Source of the DNA: a virus
Lineage: Duplodnaviria; Caudoviricetes
Reading direction: 5' to 3' (one strand)
Length of the DNA stretch: 64,000 nt
IMG/VR virus record: IMGVR_UViG_3300017565_000002
Location: 128,001 to 192,000 of that record
The stretch's first letter is position 1. Each line of letters begins with the position of its first letter. Under the pieces are notes generated by a model, which ran no database searches, was not told the origin of the DNA, and saw only the letters and a list, made by a program, of their open reading frames with translations. The position numbers were made by a program, and so were the translations under genes. Below, in pieces: positions 23,588 to 38,615 of the stretch.

Positions 23588-24310
23588 ATGACTACAAATT
23601 TTCAAGAATGGAATCAAGAGCAAGATCTGGGTTCGGCATACGCCCATGCAACTTGTGTGGATGATACGTTTTCGCTAACTATTAAAGATGTGAGCATCTT
23701 TAAATTCAAAATTTCAAAGATGGCATACAGACGCAAACTCGAAGAACTTGTCAACTTTACAAACTACTTCATAGCCGAATATGATACAGCCCAAGAGTTC
23801 GCTTACAGTCTGCAAAGGGTCGGTCTCAAAATTCACGAAACCAAAAACCTTACACTTGCAGAGTTTGTGGGCTATCTCTTTATGACTGTATTTACGCCAT
23901 CCATTAAGACAAAAATAGTGGATGTCGCATCAAATTTGTCAGCAGAGGAACGGGATTTAAAGATTGCAGCTACTGCAATCAGGTTGGTTATTCCAGTTAT
24001 GTCCGAATATGTTTCAGTAAACGAGTTGAGAATGAAAAGTACAATGTTTAAAATCATTGAACCAGTGTTCGAGTTATTCGAAGAGACTAAGAGAATTCCT
24101 AGCATCATCCGGAAACTCGTAAACGCTAGACTGAAGGATAGTCACACGAAAAATATTAAGATGTACGAAGTTCAAGGCTTAAATCTGGAAGAAACGAGAG
24201 ATCATATCTATCGGATGGTCTTAACGGATGCTATTTTCAAGACTACCGATTATACATCTATAAGCACTATCATTGACTCGCAAATCGTTTTCAATCTCAA
24301 TTCCCAATAG
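23588..24310 (+). CDS. Truncated paralog of the gp226-like specificity subunit (N-terminal domain only), 240 aa
   Basis: In-window alignment to the 12572 ORF: NYFIAEYD vs NLFMAYYD, VFTPSIKTKI vs MFSPTMVEKI, ATAIRLVIPVMSEY vs STAIKISIPIISHF, VFELFEE vs LFPLFED. Confidence 0.7.
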   Translation: MTTNFQEWNQEQDLGSAYAHATCVDDTFSLTIKDVSIFKFKISKMAYRRKLEELVNFTNYFIAEYDTAQEFAYSLQRVGLKIHETKNLTLAEFVGYLFMTVFTPSIKTKIVDVASNLSAEERDLKIAATAIRLVIPVMSEYVSVNELRMKSTMFKIIEPVFELFEETKRIPSIIRKLVNARLKDSHTKNIKMYEVQGLNLEETRDHIYRMVLTDAIFKTTDYTSISTIIDSQIVFNLNSQ

Positions 24311-35238: not shown

Positions 35239-35817
35239 ATGTATAAGCTACGAAGAAAGACTAGAACAGTTATTACCTTTACGGGTCATCGGCCTAATAA
35301 ATTATATGGATACCAATGGGATACACCGGGTAATAAAATTATTATGAACCGTCTTACAGTTGCTATCCTTAACTGTATGAGAGACAGTGGGCATACGGAA
35401 TTTTTATTTATCTGTGGCGGTGCATTGGGCATCGACCAAATGGCATTTCATATTCTGACGGAACTGAGGACGAAACTTTCATCTAAATATAAGATAAAAA
35501 TCCAATTGGCTATACCGTTTAAAGATCAACCAATCAAATGGAATGATCAACAAGATCGAAATCGATATCGGAAACATCTGCTACTCGCTGACGAGATTGT
35601 GTATGTAGATACGTTGGAAAAATATGATCGATGTAAGGATGTTCCACATGGCGCATATCATAAAGATAAGCTTTTAATACGTAACGAGTACATGGTAGAC
35701 CATGCAGATCATATCATTGCTACGTGGAACGGGGACAAACAAGGTGGGACAGCACATTGCGTGAGATATGCTGATAAAAAAGGTTGTTTACGCACAACGG
35801 TAAGTCCACTTATTTAG
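35239..35817 (+). CDS. YspA/SLOG-family protein
   Basis: FTGHRP, GGALGIDQ, AIPF..Q...W, RNEYMVD, GGTAHCVRYA. Confidence 0.88.
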   Translation: MYKLRRKTRTVITFTGHRPNKLYGYQWDTPGNKIIMNRLTVAILNCMRDSGHTEFLFICGGALGIDQMAFHILTELRTKLSSKYKIKIQLAIPFKDQPIKWNDQQDRNRYRKHLLLADEIVYVDTLEKYDRCKDVPHGAYHKDKLLIRNEYMVDHADHIIATWNGDKQGGTAHCVRYADKKGCLRTTVSPLI

Positions 35818-36376: not shown

Positions 36377-36386
36377 TATATATTAT
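36377..36386 (+). promoter_or_regulatory. Phage early-promoter motif TATATATTAT
   Basis: Exact motif about 130 nt above the 36515 ATG. Confidence 0.7.
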
Positions 36387-36514
36387 AGCTGTGAACATGT
36401 CGGACTATATAGTATTATATTATACGTCCTACATGTAATTAATGGATTATACATTATTTAGTCATCTGAATAATGTGTGATTGATAACCATATCCTGAAA
36501 GGAGATTTTTATCA

Positions 36515-37177
36515 ATGGGAGACGTGTTAGATCAACTGAAAGGTTCGGTTTCGCAACCGGATATCGAAATCTTCAAAATCGGTCCGGAGGCGGTAGATGA
36601 GTTCATCTCCAGACTTCTGGTTGTCATGGGTGCGATGCCGAATGATATTCGCCACATCATGGTAACGCACGAGCGCAAGAAATTGCGTATTGCAGCTGTG
36701 ATTGACAAAGACTCGGAAATCTTCAGCCGTGAAGAAGAGTTCCACAGCAATCTGTCCTTGCTCGGGTTCAATCAGTCGAAAGAACTGACGATGAACCGGA
36801 AGGCCAAAATGGCACTTCGCGAGTTCGGTTATTACTATCAACCGGATGAAGACGAAGACGATGGTGACCGGGGTATATACCTCGTGACGCTTGCGAAAAG
36901 CAAGAAAAGCGTCGAAATCGAGTTTGACACGGAAGTCACCATGGCCATCATCACCAACAGCGATTTTACCGATCAGTATTTCTCGATTGACGCCTCCGAA
37001 GAGGTTGTATACAAAAAGAAATACGAAAGAAAGAAATTCAAAGGCAAAAAGAAAACAGCGGTCTTCGCCCGGGTATACCGGAGCTATCAAGCCGACGGCT
37101 TCTATGATCCGGAGCAGGTTCAACGGTTCCACACTGGAGAACCACTGGATGACGAAGACGACGATGATGAAGATTGA
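36515..37177 (+). CDS. Hypothetical early protein with acidic tail, codon usage suggesting high expression
   Basis: AAAGGAG RBS; ends DDEDDDDED; C-ending codons (TTC, ATC, GAC) preferred. Confidence 0.8.
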   Translation: MGDVLDQLKGSVSQPDIEIFKIGPEAVDEFISRLLVVMGAMPNDIRHIMVTHERKKLRIAAVIDKDSEIFSREEEFHSNLSLLGFNQSKELTMNRKAKMALREFGYYYQPDEDEDDGDRGIYLVTLAKSKKSVEIEFDTEVTMAIITNSDFTDQYFSIDASEEVVYKKKYERKKFKGKKKTAVFARVYRSYQADGFYDPEQVQRFHTGEPLDDEDDDDED

Positions 37178-37193
37178 TCTGTTTCGAATCAGG

Positions 37194-37223
37194 GGAATAG
37201 TGGCGTGATGCCACTATTCCTTT
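37194..37223 (+). terminator. Hairpin, probable terminator
   Basis: GGAATAGTGGC / GCCACTATTCC stem, short T-run. Confidence 0.6.
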
Positions 37224-37267
37224 CGTTTGTAAGATATTCATTTTTTAAAAATTGAGGAGAGTTTACA

Positions 37268-38170
37268 ATGAGCGAAAAAGATATGGGTATTAGAAGATAT
37301 CGTAACTGGTATCCAACGGTAGAAACGTACGAATACTTACTCAGCTCCAAATATTCAAAACACATACTAAGCGAAATGATGCCTAATTCGAAAAATCCCC
37401 CACCAGCTAGAATGATACAGTATAACCACCTGCTATACTTCATGCAATTCTACGATACGGATGGGATATTTGCACAGTCGTATTCCAATCTCATCCGCGA
37501 CTTGGATGAAAATCCTGGCGTGTGGGATAACGCTCATTTCATGACGAGGTTGCTCGATGTATTTGCCACTGAACGTTTCAGGAATGCAGTTAAACAGTTG
37601 GTTGATCTCAATTTCTTCACAACATCCTCGGATACTCAAATGATGGCTTCAAGTATGCGGAAAATAAAGCAAAAACTACATCCTGAATGGAGCTATTCAG
37701 CCGACCAACTATTGTATCTGAGTTTTACATTAAGGATGTTACAGGATGTGTATGCACGCTATAGATATTATGAAACACGATTTGGTTCGAAAGCATTCGG
37801 TGAAGGAGAGTATGGTCAACATCTCTATCAGTTTAATTTGGCTCTATTGAAAATGATTTTACCGGTGCGTCCAGACATGGATTATGCCACATTACTCGAT
37901 CACTGCAAAGTGTGTATTAGGGGTCATGTGGTTGGCAACTATTTCATGAGAACACAGCCTGTGCCTAAAATTGCCGATGCGCTTGCTGTGATAATGATAA
38001 TGGAACTTCCGGAGTATCTTAGCCTTGACAAACCGGGCATTTATGGTGCCATGATGGCATGGTTAAAAGGTGCTCTACCATTTAGACTTACAGCACAACT
38101 AAGAGACAAGGATTCGACACTCGGGGCACCTGACGAAGTGTTGAGGGATAAAAAAGATGGCCAAAATTAA
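37268..38170 (+). CDS. Second diverged paralog of the gp226-like specificity subunit, 300 aa
   Basis: FMQFYDTDGIFAQSYSNL aligns with FMAYYDDDKELITCYVNM of the 12572 ORF; downstream helices keep register. Confidence 0.55.
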   Translation: MSEKDMGIRRYRNWYPTVETYEYLLSSKYSKHILSEMMPNSKNPPPARMIQYNHLLYFMQFYDTDGIFAQSYSNLIRDLDENPGVWDNAHFMTRLLDVFATERFRNAVKQLVDLNFFTTSSDTQMMASSMRKIKQKLHPEWSYSADQLLYLSFTLRMLQDVYARYRYYETRFGSKAFGEGEYGQHLYQFNLALLKMILPVRPDMDYATLLDHCKVCIRGHVVGNYFMRTQPVPKIADALAVIMIMELPEYLSLDKPGIYGAMMAWLKGALPFRLTAQLRDKDSTLGAPDEVLRDKKDGQN

Positions 38171-38573
38171 ATGTGATATTCGTAAAATGATTGGCACGCT
38201 CGGCGAGCCAGATAATAGCAATAAACAGCCGGTGGTCGCCATTGTCTCATGGAACGATGGGGATGAAAAGGTAAATATTCGTCACCAGAATATTGTAGAT
38301 GGGATGCTTCTTAAGGGTATCTCCCTAAGCTTCGAGGAGACAACACAGTTGATCTACAGGCTTTTGGGGAGCGAAGACATCGAATATGACCCAGATATGG
38401 CAATTCAATTGATTCAAAATCATATTTCACAGAGACAAAAGAATTCTAAAGATGATGTCCCATCCGATGAAGATGAGGTGGATATCAGCCAACTCATGAT
38501 GTCATTGGATCTAGAGGATAAGCCTTACGCGCGAACAGAGAGTGGTCATATCAAATTGGTAAGACGGAGGTAA
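38157..38573 (+). CDS. PC4/YdbC-like ssDNA-binding protein
   Basis: IGTLGE...VAIVSWNDG..KVNIR...KGISLSFEE pattern of the YdbC/PC4 fold. Confidence 0.65.
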   Translation: MAKIKCDIRKMIGTLGEPDNSNKQPVVAIVSWNDGDEKVNIRHQNIVDGMLLKGISLSFEETTQLIYRLLGSEDIEYDPDMAIQLIQNHISQRQKNSKDDVPSDEDEVDISQLMMSLDLEDKPYARTESGHIKLVRRR

Positions 38574-38615
38574 TTCTCCCGTCTTACCTTTATTTTTTAT
38601 AAAGGAGAATCAGAG

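Follow-up and report, generated by a model that had tools for sequence, protein, structure and literature searches.

A probable, highly diverged relative of the gp226 N-terminal domain in a variable gene slot of a phage related to Bacillus phage AR9

The DNA analysed here, referred to as the window, is a stretch of 64,000 nucleotides (nt) corresponding to bases 128001-192000 of a complete virus record of 215.8 kb with terminal repeats (G000). This uncultivated giant phage is distantly related to Bacillus phage AR9. Attention is focused on an open reading frame (ORF) which starts at position 37268 of the window and is called 37268 ORF, other ORFs being similarly named by their first nucleotide. 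It is located between a gene encoding a protein with an acidic tail and a gene encoding a PC4/YdbC-like protein, and its product is probably a much diverged relative of the N-terminal domain of gp226. AR9 gp226 is the sigma-like subunit which gives the non-virion RNA polymerase (nvRNAP) its promoter specificity, and is made of an N-terminal domain, or NTD (residues 1-264), a sigma-finger (265-294) and a C-terminal domain (CTD, 295-464) (PMC9209446). The NTD includes a sigma2-like unit (184-264), in which helices 2.1-2.4 dock onto the core and contact DNA; finger and CTD both contribute to promoter recognition, and a pseudo -35 binding motif sits in the C-terminal part (PMC9209446).

Features of interest are listed in Table 1. 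The 12572 ORF is, by its sequence, the true full-length ortholog of AR9 gp226. It matches chain A of the PDB entry 7S01 across residues 28-467 (E 6.6e-20) and the family phrog_25005 (E 1.3e-27), and is matched to AR9 g226 by tblastn. Full-length orthologs exhibiting 57-76% identity to it are found in metagenomes. The 23588 ORF is firmly recognizable as an NTD-only paralog, as it matches the N-terminal half of the 12572 ORF by BLASTP (E 3e-9), hhalign (probability 97.4%) and HMMER (64 bits).

Table 1. Location of the genes and sequence elements discussed in the text (window coordinates; aa, amino acids)
Feature	Position	Strand	Remarks
gp226 ortholog, full length, nvRNAP promoter-specificity subunit	12572..14062	+	496 aa; PDB 7S01_A, phrog_25005, tblastn to AR9 g226
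NTD-only paralog of the gp226 ortholog, firm	23588..24310	+	240 aa; BLASTP, hhalign, HMMER
AR9-type early (virion RNA polymerase) promoter-like motif TATATATTAT-N6-G	36377..36393	+	the 36515 ORF begins 122-138 nt downstream
Acidic-tail protein	36515..37177	+	220 aa; basic patch; C-terminal tail DDEDDDDED; conserved in all relatives
Terminator-like hairpin, 14 bp, followed by TTTCGTTTG	37191..37223	+	fold -26.5 kcal/mol, z -5.8
Orphan ORF, probably a diverged NTD-only relative of the nvRNAP specificity subunit (gp226 type)	37268..38170	+	300 aa; profile matches
Block aligning with residues ~62-170 of the 12572 ORF	37427..37765	+	residues 54-166 of the 37268 ORF; hhalign/hhsearch, HMMER
PC4/YdbC-like domain (residues ~1-70) and variable acidic tail	38157..38573	+	138 aa; PHROG, Pfam, profile against PDB
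Terminator-like hairpin and T-run after the PC4-like gene	38560..38600	+	fold -17.5 kcal/mol, z -3.9

Three complete relatives from IMG/VR, 207-247 kb in size (G002, G003 and G004), have been compared whole to the window phage. An additional NTD-only paralog of 259 aa was identified in G003 at 212015-212794 (L049:12015-12794, + strand; L049 is a G003 locus), 3.3 kb downstream of the gp226 ortholog of this genome. It covers the whole NTD and scores 78.7 bits with the family profile. A survey of paralog numbers among relatives had been suggested in a preliminary description of the window, and the G003 gene is the one firm case which emerged, as no clear counterpart was found in G002 or G004. Paralogs of gp226 or gp68 are not described in the literature searched. 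The 23588 and G003 short paralogs are only 27% identical, whereas the full-length orthologs of G000 and G003 are 61.5% identical. By this measure, divergence is very rapid in the firm short paralogs and greatly outpaces that of the full-length gene, so that a third copy which is barely detectable is to be expected.

Similarity of the 37268 ORF to gp226

The 37268 ORF is preceded by an intact GAGGAG ribosome-binding site, and overlaps by 14 nt the 38157 ORF. It is an orphan. No homologue was found by megablast or tblastn among 50,697 phage records, nor when five related virus records (G001-G005) were searched in six frames, and unlike gp226 the ORF lacks conservation among relatives. When 5.8 billion clusters were searched by word index, the sequence itself alone was retrieved. 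A full phmmer search of 1.84 billion representative proteins retrieved in addition P0002, a 500-aa sequence made of nine identical repeats of ~54 residues, discarded as an assembly or translation artefact. Matches were similarly missing in the Pfam and PHROG families, among PDB sequences and among ESM Atlas features. A PicA/Imp1-like identity was rejected, as PHROG matches of this type were not obtained.

The motifs by which the preliminary description had related the 37268 and 12572 ORFs are all present, at the relative positions given there. The motif FMQFYDTDGIFAQSYSNL is found at residues 58-75 and its counterpart at residues 66-83 of the 12572 ORF; FMTRLL...VKQLVDLNF (residues 91-116) corresponds to FVDDLV...IKVFVEEQY (99-124), and LLYLSFTLRM (147-156) to LMAISTAIKI (152-161).

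The relationship was evaluated with profiles derived from a 17-sequence gp226 alignment (A2), from which the short ORFs (23588, the G003 259-aa paralog and 37268) are excluded. Among 1533 ORFs of at least 70 aa from four genomes, A2 assigns by HMMER to the 37268 ORF 17.6 bits (E 1.2e-4; 3e-5 if ~450 ORFs are considered). The ORF ranks directly after four orthologs and the two short paralogs, the best noise match reaching 10.4 bits. The score rises to 21.0 bits (E 1.4e-5, 1533 ORFs) with an NTD profile enriched with the two firm short paralogs. The same trend is seen in hhsearch comparisons to 1016 ORFs. The ORF is placed right behind the six established members, and its probability, initially 64.7% (E 0.063), reaches 81.5% (E 0.012) upon profile enrichment, and the aligned range extends to residues 1-166. 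The corresponding P values go from 6e-5 to 1e-5, the noise floor being steady at ~5e-3.

The signal does not depend on a particular set of sequences. When A2 was split in two disjoint sets, the 37268 ORF was in both the top non-family ORF, aligned in identical register. A profile made of distant clades and AR9 gave 17.0 bits (E 1.7e-4) over residues 54-166, a profile limited to the close clade 8.9 bits. None of 20,000 shuffled versions of the ORF reached its score, the best attaining 9.5 bits. A six-frame profile search of the genome recovered the same stretch (G000 165427-165618, or window 37427-37618; E 8.7e-5). Every gp226 profile ranks the 37268 ORF first among the non-family ORFs of the four related genomes, with HMMER envelopes at residues 54-117 and 54-166. 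The shared block lies equally far from the N-terminus in the 37268, 12572 and 23588 ORFs and in the G003 259-aa paralog. Since profile tests, disjoint sets, shuffles and N-terminal register agree, homology of the 37268 ORF to the gp226 family is considered likely.

The profile comparison thus yields a relationship which is significant at the scale of genomes (E 1e-4 to 1e-5 among 1533 ORFs), but would not be so at the scale of databases. Of the three family members which the preliminary description had counted in 64 kb, two are firm (the 12572 and 23588 ORFs), and the third is probable. As had been noted, the similarity of the 37268 ORF (17-21 bits) is weaker than that of the 23588 ORF (64 bits; BLASTP E 3e-9).

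The matched block maps to residues ~53-157 of AR9 gp226, and corresponds to the phage-specific peripheral front of the NTD. Profile matches do not extend past position ~180 of the 496-position model. The 134 residues of the ORF which follow residue ~166 might accommodate a sigma2-like unit, but the corresponding helices (AR9 184-264) were not detected there. The protein stops at residue 300, where the PC4-like gene follows, and the regions corresponding to finger and CTD (AR9 265-464) are absent. Its length is consistent with that of a gp226 NTD of ~264-290 aa (PMC9209446). The earlier assignment of the ORF as a sigma-like paralog is therefore to be restricted. A weak, non-random similarity to gp226 is found, but it concerns just the AR9 interval ~53-157, and signals for the sigma2-like unit, finger and CTD are missing. 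Because the matched block is the NTD front, and the protein is too short to accommodate finger and CTD, the 37268 protein would be at most an NTD-only relative of gp226.

Residues 54-166 of the 37268 ORF are collinear with residues ~53-157 of AR9 gp226 (PDB 7S01, 7UM0 and 7UM1, chain A), but only the NTD front is recognizable, and finger and CTD are absent. The ORF resembles the short paralogs 23588 (240 aa) and G003 (259 aa) for size, lack of finger and CTD, and fast divergence. All three feature the block (L/I)xYFMxxYD(T/D)...F(V/M)xxL...KIKxxV in the same N-terminal register. In contrast, the two short paralogs match the whole NTD, sigma2-like part included, with 64-79 bits, the 37268 ORF about one third of the NTD, with 17-21 bits. 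The fifth subunit of the phiKZ nvRNAP, gp68, belongs by structure to the same functional family as gp226, and the two are merely 8.6-11% identical (PMC9209446). No sequence similarity of the 37268 ORF to gp68 turned up, nor was any expected, and the two were not compared directly.

The variable slot and its borders

The surroundings of the 37268 ORF have been compared in the window and in six relatives at the loci L010 (from G004), L011, L012, L059, L060 and L061. The acidic-tail gene, the PC4-like gene and the 38616 gene are conserved and syntenic in all six relatives. The interval separating the first two genes is not conserved, and hosts from zero to four unrelated orphan ORFs (ORFans) across the seven phages. 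It measures 360 bp and carries no gene in G002; it spans ~740 bp and carries no ORF of at least 80 aa in L060. Two ORFans each are found in L059 and L061, three ORFs, one featuring a MerR-type helix-turn-helix, in G003, and four ORFans in G004. No NTD-like gene is present in the L059, L060 and L061 slots. On this comparison the slot is a hot spot of gene turnover.

One of the G004 ORFans, of 279 aa (L010:3528-4364, - strand; G004 222524-223363), carries a YFTMQHDTSKELLRLY block, and weakly matches the profile region found in the 37268 ORF (E 0.008-0.056). This ORFan may be the positional counterpart of the 37268 ORF, which is unproven. Iteration of the profile with both sequences added did not recruit further members.

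In all seven phages the slot begins right after a conserved terminator hairpin. In the window this hairpin was not called by a simple terminator scan, because its T-run is interrupted. Equivalent hairpins with longer T-runs follow the acidic-tail ortholog in G002, G003 and G004. In all the phages compared, the acidic-tail gene, with its early motif and its strong hairpin, has the makeup of a self-contained early unit. The view that acidic-tail, 37268 and PC4-like genes constitute a conserved three-gene module has consequently been abandoned, as the first gene is a unit on its own, and the slot which hosts the second is hypervariable and empty in two relatives.

Possible roles of the 37268 protein

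Giant-phage nvRNAPs are believed to rely on one sigma-like subunit (AR9 gp226, phiKZ gp68), and the timing of their transcription programme is poorly understood. Against this background, we give about even chances to the hypothesis that the 37268 ORF is a diverged NTD-only paralog of gp226 type, acting as accessory modulator of phage transcription. The protein would be a very diverged copy of the NTD of the sigma-like specificity subunit, specific to the phage lineage and fast-evolving. An accessory role is envisaged because the protein cannot be a complete specificity subunit. It could sit on the nvRNAP core where the NTD docks or, alternatively, bind the non-template strand, in either case competing or cooperating with the full-length subunit. 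The gene is probably transcribed together with the PC4-like gene by read-through of the leaky hairpin at 37191..37223, which is the simplest guess.

Several observations weigh against such a modulator. Similarity to the 12572 ORF (E 0.098) and to the 23588 ORF (E 0.4) is not significant by BLASTP, in-genome phmmer searches with the 37268 ORF gave nothing significant, hhsearch E values are merely 0.01-0.06, and a score of 17-21 bits, significant genome-wide, would be insignificant in a whole database. No signal is found beyond residue ~166, where greedy alignment adds no score. A proline invariant in the family (P164 of the 12572 ORF) is replaced by aspartate. The single-sequence AlphaFold2 (AF2) model of the protein is all-helical and of low confidence (predicted local distance difference test, pLDDT, 42.5), as is the ESM Atlas model (0.38). 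Foldseek searches with the former retrieved generic helical-repeat rows only (E>1), a result uninformative rather than negative. Neither an early motif nor an AACA-N6-T(A/G) late motif is found between the hairpin and the start of the ORF. No short gp226 paralog was found in the AR9 genome. As the ORF has no ortholog, purifying selection is not measurable, and the action on the nvRNAP is purely inferred.

Part of these data would suit an unrelated orphan accessory gene, devoted for example to host takeover or anti-defence, which happens to occupy a hypervariable early-gene slot and resembles gp226 by chance match of helical segments. The ORF belongs to no family, and neither 1.84 billion representatives nor 5.8 billion clusters include a homologue. 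The same slot carries unrelated ORFans, or nothing, in six relatives, pairwise statistics are insignificant, hhsearch E values are just 0.012-0.063, and the similarity is confined to ~65-110 residues. A fortuitous match is hardly expected, however, to be the top non-family hit of every profile, two disjoint sets included, always in the same register and at equal distance from the N-terminus, to stay unapproached by 20,000 shuffles, and to grow upon adding true members. This explanation is accordingly regarded as rather doubtful. Extreme divergence, loss of the family-invariant proline and lack of orthologs in a region of rapid gene turnover are also what a duplicated gp226 N-terminal region undergoing decay would display, its frame being still open but unselected and devoid of function. 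A frame of 300 codons kept open at 41% G+C, which is the G+C content of the genome, and preceded by an intact GAGGAG ribosome-binding site, is difficult to reconcile with decay, and the start/stop overlap with a conserved downstream gene is hard to keep without selection; we consider decay highly improbable.

At the opposite end, the 37268 protein might be a bona fide third sigma-like subunit, forming its own holoenzyme with the nvRNAP core, directing it to a separate promoter class, and constituting a module with the PC4-like protein. The probable homology to the gp226 NTD is in line with this, as is translational coupling to the PC4/YdbC-like gene, the product of which is predicted to bind single-stranded DNA. 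Yet there is no room for finger and CTD, which in AR9 aid promoter recognition (PMC9209446), and no similarity to finger, CTD or sigma2-like helices is seen. The gene is moreover absent from the six relatives examined, which retain the same promoters and core genes. No extra promoter class is known, though none was searched for. An independent third sigma is thus unlikely, and in this full form it is quite improbable. No observation demonstrates the reprogramming of nvRNAP specificity which the preliminary description had attributed to the locus, and its idea of a reprogramming module is supported only in part, a fast-evolving accessory modulator being the likelier alternative.

Truncated gp226 paralogs limited to the N-terminal domain are firm for 23588 and the G003 gene, and probable for the 37268 ORF. 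It may be speculated, with little confidence, that NTD-only, fast-evolving copies arise time and again in AR9-like jumbo phages (23588, the G003 259-aa gene, the 37268 ORF and perhaps the G004 279-aa ORF), to be used as decoys or anti-sigma factors, or else as alternative modules for strand capture, tuning or retargeting the phages' own multisubunit RNA polymerases. Such copies might even include the specificity factor, unknown to date, of the virion RNA polymerase. If true, these enzymes would have a layer of regulation so far undescribed. Should the short paralogs bind core or promoter DNA, no earlier case would exist of a multisubunit RNA polymerase made by a phage and regulated by proteins of the phage itself, and they would offer a natural dissection of the gp226 NTD acting alone. 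Should the 37268 ORF be a chance look-alike, it would just add an orphan to a hypervariable early-gene slot, and hold little interest.

Flanking genes and their transcription signals

The gene overlapping the end of the 37268 ORF had been correctly described as PC4/YdbC-like, and the overlap, which is of 14 nt, is confirmed. The 38157 protein matches phrog_26484, annotated as 'DNA binding protein' (E 1.6e-6). The Pfam PC4 domain was found in four of four orthologs (best E 3.8e-7), the window copy scoring 17.9 bits, under the 25-bit cut-off. A profile of the orthologs matches the YdbC-type chains 3PM7, 2LTD, 2L3A and 4G06 (E 1.1e-4 to 9.4e-3) over residues ~4-70 of ~80. TAL-effector rows retrieved in the same search are repeat artefacts. 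The protein is thus PC4/YdbC-like over the whole domain. Its N-terminal ~70 residues correspond to about the whole bacterial chain of the YdbC/PC4 family (PF02229; PDB 2LTD, 3PM7, 2L3A), from which phage proteins of this type differ in that ~65-90 additional residues, acidic and variable, extend the C-terminus. In G004 (L010), a terminator hairpin and a AACAACTTCTTA motif are found ~60 nt upstream of the PC4-like gene. The motif fits the AR9 late consensus AACA-N6-TA. In the window that place is overlapped by the 37268 ORF, and the PC4-like gene accordingly lacks the motif.

At the other border, the early motif and the acidic tail pointed out in the preliminary description are both present, the former at 36377-36393 as TATATATTAT-N6-G, the latter as DDEDDDDED. 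An alpha/beta core is modelled confidently in the acidic-tail protein, for which neither a family nor a fold match was found. The complete motif reads TATATATTAT-AGCTGT-G, and the AAA found upstream in the consensus is replaced by GGC. It fits the AR9 early consensus read by the virion RNA polymerase, AAATATATATTAT-(6N)-G (PMC5312081), and is a plausible early promoter. Genome-wide, a motif ATATATTAT-N6-G precedes many + strand genes, including the gp226 ortholog. The sequence TGGCTATATATTAT is identical in front of the 36515 ORF and of the gp226 ortholog, and the same TGGC flank accompanies the early motif at the gp226 ortholog and at some two dozen other genes. In the window, TATATTAT is found in 15 copies, against 5.5 expected. 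The early motif in front of the acidic-tail ortholog is conserved in G003 and G004, and present in G002. A second, poorer early-like motif, ATTATATTAT-N6-T, is located at 36416-36423, 37 nt downstream of the first. In AR9, too, some genes, g226 included, are preceded by doubled early promoters (PMC5312081).

Two genes upstream, at 35239-35817, the window encodes a 192-aa protein of the YpsA/SLOG family (Pfam PF06908, E 1.3e-16). The gene is not at the equivalent place in G002 or G003, and has an ortholog in G004.

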